A program made the translations under genes and the position numbers. Shown here in pieces: positions 8,057 through 20,847 of a DNA stretch of 64,000 nucleotides. The DNA is from a bacterium (lineage in GTDB: Bacteria > Zhuqueibacterota > Zhuqueibacteria > Residuimicrobiales > Krinioviventaceae), in the NCBI GenBank assembly GCA_963693055.1, contig OY843751.1:1718252-1782251 (forward strand). Direction: 5' to 3'. Each line of letters starts with the position of its first letter. Positions within the stretch are counted from its first letter, which is position 1. Under the pieces are notes generated by a model, which was given only the letters and a program-made list of their open reading frames with translations, was not told where the DNA came from and searched no databases.

Positions 8057-8138
8057 TGATGGAAATAAACTTGTAACCGATGTGAATTATAATAGTGAGT
8101 AAACCCCGGATGAGATGTCCGGGATTTATATAAAACAA

Positions 8139-9593
8139 TTATTTCATTTCTGCCCGTAAAACATAGCCATATTCTGAAATGCGTTTTGCCGGGAATTGGA
8201 TAGTAAGACCGTCTTTTGTCTGTTGCCAATCTATTTTTTGCTCACTTCCAAGCATGGAAATATTTTTAATTTCAGGAGCATAATCCATTTGATCAGATAG
8301 GGATTTGATGGTTACTGTACCATCATCCGGGCAGACCAGGGCCATAATGTACAAGTTGTTGTCTTTTTGGGTAAACCAGAAATCCTGTTCCTGAAAATCT
8401 GACCTGAATCCATCACGTTTACGTTGAGTCGTACTTTTTATTTCAATTTTTGTGGGACCTTCATGTGTTACATGCTAGGAATGTCTTCCATAAATGGCTT
8501 CGCTGTTGATGGACATCCATTTGCCAATTTCGTGCAACTGGTCGATACTTTCCTGGGGTATGGAACCATCACCTTTGGGACCAATATTGAGCCAATAATT
8601 CCCGCCCTTTCTGGCAATAGCCATAATCCAGTAAATCAATTCTTTGGTGGACTTCCAATCCACATCATAACTTTTATATCCCCAGATATTGTTCAGGGTA
8701 CCGGGAGCTTCCCAGTACACGTCACCGCCTTCTCTGTTATCCGGGATTTTATTGTCACCGGTGACCCAATAATCGCCCCAATCATTACCTACTAGGTTGT
8801 TGACAAGGCAGTTGGGTTGAATATCGTAAATCAGTTTGTAAAATTCAAAACTCTGTTCTTGTGTCATATGATTCGCCATATCGTACCAAATCTCGATGAG
8901 GTTAGGAAGCGTATTTAACAGTTCTACCATTTGCGGTTTGGATTTGACCTCGAGATATTCCTCGAAAGAAACCGGAGAGGGGTCCCACATGTTTGCAGGC
9001 CAGTCTGCCTATTTGCTCGTATCGTCCGGATTTTCCTTTAAATAATTGAGCACACCCGCATTGCCGCCATCCATCTAATCGGTAGAATGTGAATAATAAA
9101 TACCAAAGCGCAGTCCTTGTTTTTCACATTCCTGTGAGAGGGCTTTGATAGGATCGATGTCAAAGGGGGTACTGTCAATAATATCGTAATCCGTTACTTT
9201 TGAATCGTACATTGCAAATCCATCATGGTGCTTGGGCATTGCTATTTCATATCGCATACCTGCGTCTTTTGCCAGTTTGACCCAGGCTTTTGCATCAAAT
9301 TTAACCGGATTGAACTGGCTGCATAATTGTTTGTACTCGTCCCTGGGTATTTACGCGTGGTAAAATATCCATTCACCCAATCCCGGGATCTTTTCTCCCT
9401 GCCAAATACTGGCAGGCATGGAATAGACACCCCAGTGACTAAACATGCTAAATTTATAATCATTAAATTGTTCCAGTGCCTGGCTTTTTGTATCGTGCAT
9501 TGCCTGCCAATCCTGCAATAAAGAATCATCGGCATAAACAAAAGTGCATACAAGAAAGAGTACAAGTATTGCAAATCTTTTAATCATCAACAT
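8139..9593 (-). pseudogene. GH29 alpha-L-fucosidase interrupted by four in-frame stop codons, no frameshift
   Basis: ORF fragments 9351..9593, 9075..9257, 8475..8990, 8139..8354 share one frame; read-through gives a continuous GH29-like protein (signal peptide, [36 protein letters not shown]). Stops at 9351-9353 TAA, 9075-9077 TAG, 9009-9011 TAG, 8475-8477 TAG. Confidence 0.8.
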
Positions 9594-9867
9594 GTCTCCT
9601 GTAGAAGCGTTTGGTGTTCAAACTTTAAGTTGTGCTATTAATTTTATAAATATTTTCATTCTAATATAAATATATAATTGAAAATATTAAAATTTATTTG
9701 TTTTTACAATAAAGTTTACTATTTTTATTAGTATAGGAACCATTATTTAATTGCAGGGGTTTAAAAATAACCAGTAATTGATGCTCAATCTATCAATGGG
9801 GTAAATCCTATATTTGATAATTGCCTTTTATAAAACACCAAATTTTTAATTTTCTAGGAGGGAGAAA

Positions 9868-12269: not shown

Positions 12270-12415
12270 ACAAATTTATTAAGGGCTAAACTACGACATA
12301 TCGGCGACAGCGTAAGAGGTAGTTGATTTAAATTTTTGACCTGTATTATTGAATCAGGAATTGTAAATTCAGGGGTTCATTTCCGAGCGATAGTTTATAA
12401 GCAATTTAATATAAA

Positions 12416-13135
12416 TTATTCATTCAACAAATTTGCAATTTCTTTACTTATTTCATCTGCCAGTTTGTTATAGCCATCCTGATTATAGTGTACATTACCC
12501 TTGGATGCACTATACTTTTCAAGCTCTGGTTCAATCAGGTTATACAAGTCAATAACCGGGATATTGTTTTCTTGCATGATCTTTTTTGCAATATTGTTTC
12601 TATCAATTACAACCTGGTTTTTTTTTGGATCTAACTTTAGATCAGGTTCATCTGACGGGAAGGGAGTTGTCTAGGAATAGACCAGTTTGCAATTTCTGGA
12701 TTTTTCAGATTTAAGAAATTTAACAAATTTTCTCAAGCTCTTTTCATATTGGCTATTGTCAAGATGCTAGCCATGAAGTCCATTATTAAAATGTATTAAT
12801 ACATGGTTTTAATTTGCCATAGCAATTTTTGATTCAATCATCAATGATGGATCTGCAATGGATCTGGATGTGGCGTATCGATCGCAATTGCCTTGCGGCA
12901 GCTTTTCTGAAACTGCTTTATAGTATCCTCTTGAAATAGAATCCCCAATAAACAATACACGGGGCTTTTCTGTATCGGGTTCATTTGCCCACCAGAAATC
13001 GCACCACTCGATTTTTTCACGAATTACTTGTGCTTTCGTGCAACCTGCTATAATAAAACCCGTTAATAATATAAAATAAAGTGTTTTTGAAGAAATTATC
13101 CTGTTCCATTGAAACCCGGGCATCGCGTTTTTCAT
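12416..13135 (-). pseudogene. SGNH/GDSL hydrolase (lipoprotein-type signal) interrupted by three in-frame stop codons, no frameshift
   Basis: N-terminal fragment 12809..13135 has lipobox and RVLFIGDSISRGY block I; reading on in the same frame through TAA (12809-12811), TAG (12767-12769) and TAG (12671-12673) gives ...HVLIHFNNGLHG*HLDN...KLVYS*TTPFP...NVHYNQDGYNKLADEI..., ending at 12416. Confidence 0.75.
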
Positions 13136-13529
13136 TACTTATTCCTTTTAATTGTTAATTTTTCAGTATGTTTAAAAAGGAATAAAATAATTTGATAAAA
13201 ATCAATATAATATTTCATTGAAAAATACAGATCCATTTCAATCAAAATATATATCATTGCATTTTTCCGGTATTTGTGATATACTTACTAGTCACATGAG
13301 ATAATATATGTAAAGGGGGGGTAAATTAATCAAAGACAATATTACTGCATTCTCTGATAAGGTAGTGTAAGGATGGAAATTTATAAATATTAATGCGGGA
13401 AAATTATGATCTGTCTATAAATATTCCGGTTTATACGTTTGAGGCATGAAATATTTTTTAATCAATATCAATGTTTTTAAAAAGATTTAAGAGTAAGTTG
13501 GAATAAAAGATAATAATTTAAGGTACAAT

Positions 13530-14033
13530 GTGACAAAAATTTTTATGTATATATGGATTTTTCTCCTATTAGTAAATTTTATACTTTTATTTGTAAAGAT
13601 GTTTTCTATTTCTGAAACCCATGTTAAATTTGGAATAGGAATTAAATTTCTTTTTTTACATTTTTTTGTTATCATGTCTTTAGGATATTATTTTTCTGTC
13701 ATTGAACCATTTTTTTTGAATGGAAAAGAACCTAATCTGAACGCTACTATTCTGTTGCTATTTTCCATTTTGGGAGTTTATGTTGGATTTAGCTTTCGAT
13801 TTCAATGTAAGGGAAAGTATTATATATGGTTCAACGGCCTATATATTCGAAAAGTATCTTCCGATACCATCAAATATATTATTTTCTATGTGAAAAAGGG
13901 ACAAACACAAAAAATTAAGTTTGTTAGAGATGGAAAGAATATTACTTTTCGATTTGGGAATTATTTTGAATATGTTATTTATAAATTTGCACATGAAAAC
14001 AAAATTCATATAAAAAGAAAAAAATATAGTTGA
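13530..14033 (+). CDS. Orphan hypothetical membrane protein in a very AT-rich island
   Basis: 167-aa ORF with two N-terminal hydrophobic helices and a Lys-rich C-terminal part; strongly AT-rich compared with flanks; followed by its own terminator; start uncertain (GTG 13530 or ATG about 13545). Confidence 0.4.
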   Translation: MTKIFMYIWIFLLLVNFILLFVKMFSISETHVKFGIGIKFLFLHFFVIMSLGYYFSVIEPFFLNGKEPNLNATILLLFSILGVYVGFSFRFQCKGKYYIWFNGLYIRKVSSDTIKYIIFYVKKGQTQKIKFVRDGKNITFRFGNYFEYVIYKFAHENKIHIKRKKYS

Positions 14034-14045
14034 ATTTTAGTATGT

Positions 14046-14073
14046 ATAGATGGCGATTTGTCCATCTTTTTTA
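14046..14073 (+). terminator. Rho-independent terminator after the AT-rich orphan ORF
   Basis: agatgg-cgatttgt-ccatct hairpin followed by a T-run. Confidence 0.55.
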
Positions 14074-14172
14074 GGAAGTGTAAAGATTTTTGTGTAAATC
14101 ATGAACAAGGGTTCAATAACCCGTAGGGTTATTGAATTTCGATCGCTGATTGATTTGCACACACTTTTCCAA

Positions 14173-15505
14173 GGGACTGTAAATTCGCTTGTGTTTTAAA
14201 AACAAATATTACATTTTATTAAATACAGGAGAATTTACCAATGAAACTTACACCTGAAATTATTAAACAACTTGAAAAAGATTTTGAAAATTGCAAGACA
14301 GCAGACGATCTGCTGGGCAAAAATGGTCTGGTCAAGAATTTGATTAAGGGCATATCAGACCAAATTATGGAAGCTGAAATGACCCAGCACTTGGGCTATG
14401 AGAGACATTCTTCAGAAGGTGATAACAGTGGCAATAGTAGAAACGGTCACAGCAGCAAAACAGTGAAGACAGATTTTGGTGAAATTGACATCAAAATCCC
14501 CCGTGATCGGAATGGAGAATTTGACCCGGTACTTGTCAAAAAGCACCAGCGTGATCTGGGCAAAATAGATGAAATTATCGTTGCCTTATATGCCAAAGGT
14601 CTGAGTACAAGAGACATCAAAGACCACCTGGAAACACTTTACGGCCTGGACGCTTCCCCAACATTTATTTCCAATGTTACCGAACGGGTACGCGAGCTTG
14701 TCGTTGAATGGCAGTCAAGACCGTTGGATAGCGTTTATCCTATTGTTTATTTGGATGCTATCCACTATAAGATACGTGACGAAGGGCGTATTATAAACAA
14801 GGCCGCCTATACTGTACTGGGAATCAATGGTGAAGGCTTTAAGGATTTACTTGGTATTTGGATCGACCAGTCCGAGGGCGCCAATTTCTGGCTGTCTGTT
14901 TTAACCGATATACGAAACCGTGGGGTTGAAGATATTCTGATTGCATGCGTAGATGGGCTGAAAGGCTTTCCGGATGCTATTGCCAGCATTTTTCCCGATA
15001 CTGAAGTCCAGCTTTGTATCATCCATCAAATCCGTAACTCGCTTCGTTATGTTGCATCAAAACATCAAAAAGAATTTATCAAAGATCTGAAGCTGGTTTA
15101 TCAAAGCACAACTAAAGAAAACGCTGAACTGCAACTGGATCGCCTTGAACAAAAATGGGGGGTCAAATATCCCATTGTTATCAATTCCTGGAGAAAAAAC
15201 TGGGACAACCTGTCCAACTATTTTAAATATCCCGAAGAAATTCGGCGAATGATCTATACCACAAATAGTGTAGAGGCTCTGCACCGACAGCTTCGCAAAG
15301 TCACTAAAACCAAATCTCTGTTCCCCCACGATGATGCGTTGAAAAAAATGCTGTTTCTGGCCTACAGGGATATTGCTAAAAAATGGTCGCAGCCCATCAG
15401 AAACTGGGCCTTTGTTGTTTCTCAATTTTCTATTATATTTAAAGACAGGATGAAAATCCAAATATAGCACTACTATTCATTTACACAAAAAAGTTTACAG
15501 TCTCC
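14173..15505 (+). mobile_element. IS256-family insertion sequence, about 1.33 kb, with imperfect terminal inverted repeats
   Basis: Left end gggactgtaaattcgcttgtgt (14173-14194) matches the reverse complement of the right end (15483-15505, ggagactgtaaacttttttgtgt); single transposase ORF inside. Boundaries are approximate to a few bp; no clear target-site duplication seen. Confidence 0.7.
14241..15467 (+). CDS. IS256-family (mutator-type) transposase
   Basis: 408 aa with the typical IS256 transposase layout (YLDAIHYKIR, CVDGLKGFPDAI, CIIHQIRNS); RBS aggag upstream. Confidence 0.9.
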   Translation: MKLTPEIIKQLEKDFENCKTADDLLGKNGLVKNLIKGISDQIMEAEMTQHLGYERHSSEGDNSGNSRNGHSSKTVKTDFGEIDIKIPRDRNGEFDPVLVKKHQRDLGKIDEIIVALYAKGLSTRDIKDHLETLYGLDASPTFISNVTERVRELVVEWQSRPLDSVYPIVYLDAIHYKIRDEGRIINKAAYTVLGINGEGFKDLLGIWIDQSEGANFWLSVLTDIRNRGVEDILIACVDGLKGFPDAIASIFPDTEVQLCIIHQIRNSLRYVASKHQKEFIKDLKLVYQSTTKENAELQLDRLEQKWGVKYPIVINSWRKNWDNLSNYFKYPEEIRRMIYTTNSVEALHRQLRKVTKTKSLFPHDDALKKMLFLAYRDIAKKWSQPIRNWAFVVSQFSIIFKDRMKIQI

Positions 15506-15633
15506 TTTTTTATTTTTCATTAATTAGTTATATTTGATTTTTGTTTGATTATAGATTTATTCTCATTCTCAATCCTGAATAATATTGTATTTTCAGGCGT
15601 TTGTGATATACTATTTAAAAGTATTGAGGAAAG

Positions 15634-17283
15634 ATGAATACCGGAGCTGTATTACTTATCCATAAAAATGATAATGTTGCAGTGGCTCTGCGGCCACTTG
15701 TGGCAGGGGAGCGTGTCAATGCTGGGGATAAATCTGTTATTATAAAAAATGATATTCCTGCCAAGCATTCTATTGCTTTGCGGGACATGCCTGCATCAAA
15801 TCCTATAATTATGCACGGTATTTTGGTTGGCGAGACGACTTGTCCTGTTAAATCCGGAGAGCGTTTAGGTACACATAATCTCGTGCACAAGACCGCAGGG
15901 TTCGAGTATCGCGGAGTTGTGCAGCAATGGACGCCACCGGATGTGTCTACTCTGCAGGATTTAACCTTTATAGGCTATATGCGTAAAAATGGTTCTGTGG
16001 GTACGGCTAATAACTGGATTGTGGCGCCGCTGGTGTTTTGTGAAAATGAAAATATCCTGAAACTGAAAACGGCTTTTGAGGCTATTAACGGACTGCACGG
16101 ACGATCCCGACACCGTCAGCTTGCAGACCAGTTGTCCCATGCCTGGAGCTCCGGTACGAGTGTGGATGAATTGACATCACTTGATTTTACCTACAGTGCA
16201 GAATCTAACCAGTCCCTTTTCCCGAATGTGGACGGTATCAAGTTTCTTACGCATGAATCCGGTTGCGGTGGAACACGTAAAGACGCACATGATTTGTGCG
16301 CTCTTTTGGCGGGATACATCACGCATCCCAATACCGCCGGGGCGACTATACTCAGCCTGGGCTGCCAGAACGCTCAGATACTGGACTTATATGAAGCAAT
16401 TCATGCGCATGATCCTCAATTCAACAAACCTTTGTATATACTGGACCAGCAGCAGTACGGAAGGAGTGAATATTTGCTGGATGACGCTGTGTGTAAAACG
16501 TTTGCGGGACTCGTTGAGGCGAACGAAGCAGAACGGCAACCTGTACCTGTCAACAAACTGGTGATTGGTGTAGAGTGTGGAGGCTCTGACGGATTTTCCG
16601 GTATAACCGCTAATCCATTAATGGGCCGTATTGCTGACAGGATTGTCGCTGTTGGGGGCAGCGTGATTCTGGGCGAATTTCCCGAGTTTGGAGGTGCAGA
16701 GCAATCCCTGATCGATCGCTGCATGGATAAAGAGACAGCAGAACGGTTTATTAAGTTGTATCGGGATTATGAAGCGCGAGCCCGTTCGGTAGGTGCGGGA
16801 TTCGATATGAATCCGTCACCAGGTAACATTCGAGAAGGATTAATCACTGACGCCATGAAATCCGCCGGAGCAGTAACAAAAGGCGGCACATCGCCGGTAA
16901 CAGATATTCTTGATTATCCGGAATATGTTACTAAAGAAGGACTCAGTTTGCTGTTGACCCCGGGCAACGATGTGGAATCCACAACCGCGCTGGTAGCTGC
17001 CGGGGCAAATGTAGTGCTGTTCTCAACAGGACTCGGAACGCCCACGGGGAACCCAATTGTACCAGTGATCAAGATTGCCAGTAACACGCAGACTGCGCGA
17101 CGTATGGCAGATATCATTGATTTTGACGCTGGCGGGTTAATTGACGGGGGAAAATCCATGGAAGCATTGGCAGATGAATTGATCCAAATGATTATCAATA
17201 CTGCCGGTGGAGAGTATAATCCCAAAGCTGTACAAAACCACCAGGATGATTTTATCCCATGGAAGCGGGATGTTTCGTTGTAA
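15634..17283 (+). CDS. uxaA: Altronate dehydratase / galactarate dehydratase family (SAF domain plus D-galactarate dehydratase/altronate hydrolase C-terminal domain)
   Basis: 549 aa; N-terminal SAF-like segment, central HESGCGG and C-terminal FSTGLGTPTGNPIVPVIKI motifs typical of UxaA/GarD. Confidence 0.8.
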   Translation: MNTGAVLLIHKNDNVAVALRPLVAGERVNAGDKSVIIKNDIPAKHSIALRDMPASNPIIMHGILVGETTCPVKSGERLGTHNLVHKTAGFEYRGVVQQWTPPDVSTLQDLTFIGYMRKNGSVGTANNWIVAPLVFCENENILKLKTAFEAINGLHGRSRHRQLADQLSHAWSSGTSVDELTSLDFTYSAESNQSLFPNVDGIKFLTHESGCGGTRKDAHDLCALLAGYITHPNTAGATILSLGCQNAQILDLYEAIHAHDPQFNKPLYILDQQQYGRSEYLLDDAVCKTFAGLVEANEAERQPVPVNKLVIGVECGGSDGFSGITANPLMGRIADRIVAVGGSVILGEFPEFGGAEQSLIDRCMDKETAERFIKLYRDYEARARSVGAGFDMNPSPGNIREGLITDAMKSAGAVTKGGTSPVTDILDYPEYVTKEGLSLLLTPGNDVESTTALVAAGANVVLFSTGLGTPTGNPIVPVIKIASNTQTARRMADIIDFDAGGLIDGGKSMEALADELIQMIINTAGGEYNPKAVQNHQDDFIPWKRDVSL

Positions 17284-20130: not shown

Positions 20131-20847
20131 CTAGTTTTTACCGCCTTTGCCTCTTGAAGGTGTTGAATCATCAGAGCGTCCAAAACCTACTGTGGTATTT
20201 GTTGCTCCACGTCCCAGACAATCTTCCGGGCGGACCCAATCAGAGTCCTGACCATTGGGGATACCGTCACTGTCATCATCCGGTGCATTGTCGTTGATTC
20301 CATCACCGTCTTCGTCAACAAATGCATGCATGCTGCGACCTTTGCCATTGCCAAAACCGCTTTTGCCGCCAGCTGCTACGTAATCAGCATCCTGACCATT
20401 TGGGATTCCATCACCATCAGCATCAGGTGCATTGTCATTATATCCGTCACCATCTTCGTCTACAAAACTATTTGCGCCTTGTTTCTGACCATTTCCTGCG
20501 GCACTACCCTGACCAGCTTGTGCTACATAATCTTCATCCATGCCATTGGGGATTCCATCGCCATCTGCATCCGGTGCATTGTCGTTATAGCCGTCACCAT
20601 CTTCGTCTACAAAGCCTTCACCGGAAATACCCTGACCATAGCCGGAACCTGTACGGACATAATCTTCATCCATACCATTGGGAATTCCATCGCCATCAGC
20701 GTCCGGGGCATTGTCATTGTAGCCATCACCATTGAGGTCCACAAATTTTACACCATGTTCAGCGGTTTGTGAAAATACAGAGGTACTTGCAAATGCTGTC
20801 ATTGCCAAAGCAAGAAGCAGAACGGATAATGTTTTTGATGTTTTCAT
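20131..20847 (-). CDS. Secreted protein built of four tandem thrombospondin type 3-like calcium-binding repeats
   Basis: Signal peptide, then four copies of FVDEDGDGYNDNAPDADGDGIPNG(M/Q)D(E/A)DYV separated by Gly-rich linkers. Confidence 0.7.
   Translation of the reverse strand: MKTSKTLSVLLLALAMTAFASTSVFSQTAEHGVKFVDLNGDGYNDNAPDADGDGIPNGMDEDYVRTGSGYGQGISGEGFVDEDGDGYNDNAPDADGDGIPNGMDEDYVAQAGQGSAAGNGQKQGANSFVDEDGDGYNDNAPDADGDGIPNGQDADYVAAGGKSGFGNGKGRSMHAFVDEDGDGINDNAPDDDSDGIPNGQDSDWVRPEDCLGRGATNTTVGFGRSDDSTPSRGKGGKN
20255..20770. repeat. Four tandem DNA repeats of about 130-150 bp encoding the calcium-binding repeat units
   Basis: Near-identical blocks (ggattccatcrccatcwgcatcmggtgcattgtcrttrtakccgtcaccatcttcgtctacaaa) recur at roughly 20260, 20400, 20550 and 20680. 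Confidence 0.7.

Follow-up and report, generated by a model that had tools for sequence, protein, structure and literature searches.

A complete IS256-family insertion sequence with an internal copy of its left terminal repeat, upstream of uxaA

What mobile element lies upstream of the putative altronate dehydratase gene uxaA at this locus, where are its ends, and has it taken over the control of its neighbor? A preliminary description had placed an IS256-family element of 1333 bp at 14173-15505, with an intact transposase gene and imperfect inverted repeats at its ends, and had proposed that the native uxaA promoter might have been displaced by it or replaced. We investigated these questions in the window (namely, the entire 64,000-nt stretch of DNA that was analyzed) and in related loci from other genomes and metagenomes.

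The family of the element follows from its transposase gene (14241-15467, plus strand), which is intact and encodes 408 amino acids. The protein matches Pfam PF00872 (Transposase_mut) from end to end (402.5 bits; cutoff, 21), as well as the NCBIfam IS256 equivalog NF033543 (428.4 bits; cutoff, 150), and its residues 6-403 align with the ISCth4 transposase TnpA (PDB 6XG8) with 407 bits and 43% identity. In this alignment, the DDE triad (Asp172, Asp238, and Glu345) and the CxxH residues (Cys259 and His262) of the C/DxxH motif in the helical insertion domain correspond, with a constant offset, to ISCth4 Asp175, Asp241, Glu348, Cys262, and His265, respectively; among 12 aligned homologs, with identities that reach down to 51%, none of the five varies. 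IS256-family elements are ∼1.2-1.5 kb long and contain a single ORF, a range that fits the 1431 bp and one ORF found here, with relatives measured at 1317-1432 bp. The family is further marked by imperfect inverted repeats of ∼25-30 bp and by target duplications of 8-9 bp, and the values for this element (26 and 8 bp) agree with both. A subterminal TGTAAA motif, which is a feature of the IS256 family (PMC7780238), is likewise present. Thus, the profile, the DDE and CxxH residues, the single ORF, the terminal inverted repeats (TIRs), the target duplication, and the occurrence in multiple copies, which are the defining IS256 features that a sequence can reveal, were all found, and at this level the family assignment is secure. 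While the IS256 family itself is well known, this element is unnamed: among the species-representative genomes, the closest transposases show at most 85% amino acid identity, and a few unannotated metagenome proteins are 95-100% identical to it.

The ends of the element were defined by comparison with its relatives. Eight related copies on other contigs (L001, L002, and L082-L087) align to 14074-15504 (plus strand) and diverge outside of this block, with different flanks in each. Because the similarity of the related copies stops at 14074, we place the left end there rather than at 14173, i.e., 99 bp further out, and the element is 1431 bp, not 1333 bp, in length. L087 is 97.6% identical to the window over exactly 14074-15504 and has an unrelated left flank; L082 is 84% identical to the window element, and L001, L002, L084, L085, and L086 are ∼78% identical. 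L001 and L002 are two copies within one metagenome-assembled genome (CAXXFV01), with transposases 85% identical to that of the window in amino acid sequence, and their mutual identity is 98.7% over 1432 bp. At the right, the earlier boundary was off by a single base, since the element ends at 15504 and the target duplication starts at 15505. A ninth, left-truncated copy, which was the single match in a metagenome scan with the right TIR, supports the right boundary only, and a search of metagenomes for the exact left TIR gave no match. In one of the eight copies, L083 (1391-2825), the right end is replaced ∼37 bp before the terminus by another transposase gene (DDE_Tnp_1_4), which is a nested or abutting insertion sequence.

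These ends coincide with the marks of transposition. The 8-bp sequence CTTTTTTA abuts the copy-defined left end at 14066-14073 and is repeated perfectly at 15505-15512; the 8-bp target duplications that the preliminary description had suggested looking for are therefore present, but at the outer boundaries only. The predicted uninterrupted target site reads ...CCATCTTTTTTATTTTTCATT... (also as ...GATTTGTCCATCTTTTTTATTTTTCATTAATTAG...). L001 is also flanked by an 8-bp duplication, TGCAAAAT. Unlike L001, L002 (2330-3761) of the same genome lacks a target duplication, perhaps because copies have recombined with one another or because adjacent sequence was deleted. Among seven distant IS256 relatives measured in multicopy genomes (1317-1414 bp, with ends of the form G(A/G)G..TGTAAA), six are flanked by duplications of 8 bp, and no matching flanks are seen for L003, the seventh.

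The element starts with GGAAGTGTAAAG and ends with CAGTCTC. Its left TIR, GGAAGTGTAAAGATTTTTGTGTAAAT (14074-14099, plus strand), carries TGTAAA at bp 6-11, is kept in all eight copies, and matches the right end at 21 of 26 positions; most relatives have GTGTCCAAAG within this repeat, where the window has GTGTAAAGA. The right TIR (15479-15504, minus strand) reads GAGACTGTAAACTTTTTTGTGTAAAT inward and presents an outward −35-like TTTACA at 15494-15499, i.e., at its bp 6-11. This outer pair is the best in the window and the sole TIR-like pair above the background (≤18/26); an inverted-repeat scan also recovered it as 14079-14099 versus 15479-15499, at 90%. A possible solo TIR at 13361-13374 (12 of 14 positions matching the left TIR) was attributed to chance, as it scored below 17/26 in the TIR scan and had no fitting target duplication.

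What, then, is the repeat at 14173 that was previously taken as the left end? An inverted pair does exist there, since 16 of 20 positions are complementary between 14175-14194 and 15483-15502, but its left member is internal. This internal copy, GGGACTGTAAATTCGCTTGTGTTTTA (14173-14198, plus strand), begins with GGGACTGTAAATTC 100 bp inside the element, matches the right TIR at 17 of 24 positions, and retains both the GxGAC tip and TGTAAA at bp 6-11. Its pairing with the right end (17/26, versus 21/26 for the outer pair) is only weakly above chance, as several unrelated 17/26 matches occur in the window; in a shuffle test of the 320-nt leader region, 12 of 5000 shuffles equaled its match to the right end. 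It is, moreover, near-invariant in the eight copies, which are otherwise 78-98% identical.

That resemblance (16/20; 17/24), with the tip and motif intact, would be in keeping with a 1333-bp element at 14173-15505 that has the inner repeat as its left terminus, as would its size, because ∼1.33 kb and a 68-nt leader are typical of the distant relatives of 1317-1414 bp. However, the additional 99 bp are present in all eight relatives, whose similarity ends at 14074, and the 8-bp duplication flanks 14074, with none found around 14173; we consider the shorter element very improbable. Another reading holds that two units are juxtaposed, namely a ∼99-bp MITE-like unit (14074-14172), or a relic of a tandem dimer, followed by a 1332-bp insertion sequence whose inner end is usable. 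The 99-bp segment indeed opens with a TIR, its end is partly TIR-complementary in several copies (ACACTTTTCC in the window and ACATTTCC in L084-L086), the inner repeat is strongly conserved with all recognizable TIR features, and the extension is absent from the distant relatives. Yet leader nucleotides 70-100 are its least conserved part, no stand-alone copy of the segment or of its hairpin occurs in 88 loci, and the unit sits in the same place in copies that are 78% identical, which indicates that it moves as one element today; a juxtaposition is therefore unlikely. The stretch 14145-14172 was also considered as a decayed right TIR, an idea that found no support because this is the least conserved part of the leader. 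Taken together, we assign a probability of roughly 0.85 to the reading that 14074-15504 is one complete, unnamed IS256-family insertion sequence with a single DDE transposase gene, 26-bp TIRs, and an 8-bp target duplication.

Within this single 1431-bp element, the internal repeat is probably, from its sequence, the ancestral left TIR, to which this clade would have added a 99-bp leftward extension bearing a new TIR. A search for an internal copy in the seven distant IS256 elements gave none, with best matches of 11-14/24 in leaders that are shorter.

The 167-nt leader between the left end and the transposase gene has further distinctive features, and it folds better than its shuffled versions (z = −5.06). 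Firstly, a hairpin at 14109-14139 (plus strand) has a perfectly palindromic core at 14112-14136, TTCAATAACCC-GTA-GGGTTATTGAA, with an RNA folding energy of −15.6 kcal/mol (z = −4.1); it is near-invariant in the eight copies, which otherwise differ by as much as their 78-98% identity allows, and was found solely inside copies of the insertion sequence. Secondly, the internal repeat (14179-14202) pairs with the Shine-Dalgarno region (14215-14238; AGGAG at 14227-14231) in a stem-loop at 14179-14238 (plus strand; −15.6 kcal/mol, z = −4.1), of which 16/16 pairs are kept in the eight copies with wobble changes only. We found no covariation or compensatory changes in these leader helices among the eight near-invariant copies and, given this near-invariance, an RNA structure here is indistinguishable from a DNA or protein site. 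An Rfam search of the window returned no RNA family.

The internal repeat may also serve in transcription, as its bp 8-13 (14180-14185) read TAAATT, which resembles a −10 element. In a relaxed scan, the leader's sole promoter candidate had its −10 inside this repeat, with the proviso that the consensus may not be that of the host. The parts of a circle-junction promoter are TTTACA as the −35 at bp 6-11 of the right TIR and TAAAGA at the −10 position of the outer left TIR; the latter matches at three of six positions and lacks the final T, and relatives read TCCAAA there. Judging by these hexamers, the junction promoter that is typical of the IS256 family may not form in this element.

In IS10 and IS50, sequence close to the end pairs with the ribosome-binding site (RBS) of the transposase only in transcripts that were started externally. 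A similar scheme can be sketched for the window element, which would move by copy-out/paste-in through a circular intermediate if it behaves like ISCth4 and the IS256 family. Transcripts from an internal promoter would lack the 5′ arm of the RBS stem and would be translatable; in transcripts entering from outside, the internal repeat would pair with the RBS, such that translation of read-through RNA would be blocked. The hairpin at 14109-14139, upstream of the internal repeat, could pose an additional barrier or be bound by a protein. We tentatively propose, as a possibility that falls well short of even odds, that the element has two nested left ends: a new outer TIR used for transposition, and an ancestral TIR that is retained as a transposase-binding site, a −10 element, and an RBS-sequestering partner, guarded by the palindrome. 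If this holds, the nested left ends would make expression of the transposase independent of the usual circle-junction promoter.

Whether the element can still move was assessed from its integrity and copy number. The window contains one copy only. However, a second transposase variant, identical at 405 of 408 positions, is recorded on the same 6,535,007-bp contig as other proteins of the window, namely the transposase itself, the products of uxaA and ORF167, and two neighbors, and because of this variant the genome holds at least two copies according to the protein records. L087, from another metagenome sample, is 97.6% identical and lies at a different site. It could be argued that the element is an immobile relic, intact in sequence yet having lost transposition, in view of the single copy in 64 kb and the poor −10 that its outer left TIR offers to a junction promoter. 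The perfect target duplication, the 405/408 variant in the genome, and the 97.6% copy elsewhere argue for recent activity instead and, with the intact ORF and all of its catalytic residues, make a relic improbable. The earlier suggestion of a complete and possibly active element is thus upheld, and its sequence is probably that of a complete, still mobile one.

The second claim of interest concerned the neighboring gene. uxaA (15634-17283) lies in the same orientation as the element and encodes a 549-amino-acid protein of SAF, GD_AH_second, and GD_AH_C architecture. Homologs with 55-59% identity bear the name altronate dehydratase in their source records, and the protein scores 245 against the NCBIfam galactarate dehydratase model, below the cutoff of 731; on this sequence evidence the assignment to the UxaA family is sound, and altronate is a putative substrate. 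GH28 pectinase genes occur near uxaA, which has a GC content of ∼48-50% among neighbors of 25-35% (window mean, 38.7%). The element was correctly described as lying upstream of uxaA, with a gap that measures 129 bp, rather than 128 bp, between its end and the ATG at 15634.

The closest relative of the uxaA product (P0001; 89% amino acid identity) is encoded in a syntenic locus, L081, that is free of the insertion sequence, where a 170-bp spacer separates uxaA from a divergent GDSL-lipase gene. Within this spacer, TTGCAT-17-TGaTATACT precedes the ATG by 21 nt. The window has a matching promoter-like block, TTGTAT-16-TGaTATACT (15585-15612, plus strand), which is likewise 21 nt upstream of the ATG and lies in the flanking DNA between the element and uxaA, 80 bp past the end of the element. 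The block is duplicated in the window, with copy A at 13234-13285 and copy B at 15564-15612. Copy A is the continuation of a segment (13100-13285) with 97% identity to L081; the other, copy B, 21 nt before the uxaA ATG, has diverged except for a 13-mer, TTTGTGATATACT, which is identical in L081 and in copies A and B and occurs in the window at 13273 and 15600 only. Since copy B is 80 bp downstream of its end, the insertion sequence has left the core promoter-like element in place, and as this block is shared with a relative lacking the insertion, the proposed displacement or replacement of the uxaA promoter is not supported.

Could the element nonetheless control uxaA, by a hybrid promoter or by read-through from the transposase gene, and so replace the native regulation? 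Its outward TTTACA (15494-15499) is 5 bp from the end, as in ISCth4, and the formation of hybrid promoters by members of the IS256 family is documented (PMC3281130; PMC6702299); in addition, the element and uxaA share one orientation, with no convincing terminator between the transposase stop codon and uxaA. On the other hand, none of the hexamers 16-21 bp past TTTACA combines A as its second base with T as its sixth, and since this −35 thus lacks an acceptable −10, no hybrid promoter is evident. A search at the right end yielded no outward or hybrid promoter, and a strict σ70 scan gave no plus-strand promoter near the element or uxaA, although the consensus may not be that of the host; promoter candidates come from the relaxed scan only, and the promoter rules of the host may differ from the consensus used. 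With the conserved promoter-like block nearer to uxaA and 129 bp separating the element from the ATG, control of uxaA by the insertion sequence has a low probability. We infer that its effect on uxaA is small and consists, at most, of read-through from the transposase gene or the loss of far-upstream regulatory sites.

The upstream region of uxaA has nevertheless been displaced, by other means. A 2.3-kb, lineage-specific insert lies between promoter-block copies A and B, and it comprises a cassette (13286-14073; 24-28% GC) that is absent from L081 and carries an orphan gene, ORF167, and a terminator-like hairpin. The 2.3-kb displacement of the orthologous upstream region is due to this cassette, and the insertion sequence is a later, nested insertion. 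ORF167 (13530-14033) is AT-rich and hydrophobic; its product has no Pfam or PADLOC match and, among 5.8 billion proteins, matches only itself. Behind ORF167, on the plus strand of the flanking DNA, the hairpin (14048-14067) is followed by a T-tract (together, 14048-14073), into which the element inserted by simple transposition.

Other features of the surrounding region are of separate interest. The segment 12000-13285 is 92-100% identical to L081, except for a dip to 64-72% at ∼12300-12450, whereas the rest of the locus is ∼86% identical; the end of this high-identity patch coincides with the cassette junction (13285/13286), a sign that it may be a recombination tract. Within it, a GDSL-lipase homolog (12416-13135, minus strand) has three in-frame nonsense codons (TAA at 12809-12811, TAG at 12767-12769, and TAG at 12671-12673) and no frameshift, with 222 of 240 aligned positions, the terminal stop included, identical to the intact gene of L081; from its sequence, it looks like a recent pseudogene. 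An α-L-fucosidase homolog (∼8100-9600, minus strand) contains several in-frame stops, and its L081 ortholog (482 amino acids) is intact. Finally, a 238-amino-acid ORF devoid of Pfam domains (20131-20847, minus strand) shows ∼145-bp internal repeats relative to its L081 ortholog, as seen from staggered BLAST hits.

The main value of these results is for annotation: the element is to be recorded with 1431 bp, and not with 1333 bp, and a rewiring of uxaA is not to be credited to it. Of minor interest for transposon biology is an IS256 sub-lineage that possesses a second, internal left end and an invariant palindrome. In addition, the locus is an example of local plasticity in the 6.5-Mb genome of an uncultured bacterium, as seen in the orphan cassette, the duplication of the promoter block, and two glycan genes riddled with nonsense codons.

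Compared with known systems, the window element is nearest to the metagenome copies of its own clade, i.e., L087 (ENA k119_1961627), L082, L001, L002, and L084-L086, which have the same architecture end to end and an identical right end. The outer TIR, hairpin, internal TIR, RBS stem, and 408-amino-acid transposase are common to all of these, whereas their insertion sites are different and their nucleotide identity to the window is 78-98%. IS10 and IS50, which belong to the IS4 family, are similar in the RBS pairing of transcripts started outside, a pairing that is only predicted in the window element, where the partner, in contrast, is an internal TIR copy. IS256 itself, the family prototype, from Staphylococcus and Enterococcus, resembles the window element in encoding one DDE transposase, and also in its imperfect TIRs (∼26 bp) and the length of its target duplication (8 bp). 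Nevertheless, it is distant: even the ISCth4 transposase is only 26% identical to that of IS256 (PMC7780238). In IS256, the −35 occupies bp 1-6 of the right end; and while IS256 is reported to affect neighboring genes through hybrid promoters (PMC6702299; PMC7780238), none is evident in the window. A further comparison is with ISCth4, an IS256-family element of Clostridium thermocellum with known transposase structures (6XG8, 6XGW, and 6XGX; PMC7780238). The two transposases, of 410 amino acids in ISCth4 and 408 in the window, are 43% identical with aligned DDE and CxxH residues; both elements have 8-bp target duplications, and in either TIR of each, bp 6-11 read TGTAAA, so that the outward TTTACA occupies the same position of the right TIR. 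They differ in that the 167-nt leader of the window element additionally contains an internal copy of the TIR and the invariant hairpin, and in that the −10 of ISCth4 (TAAAAT, bp 8-13 of its left TIR) corresponds to a poor TAAAGA in the outer repeat and a good TAAATT in the inner one. The solved ISCth4 transpososome thus offers a framework for probing the internal end and the palindrome.
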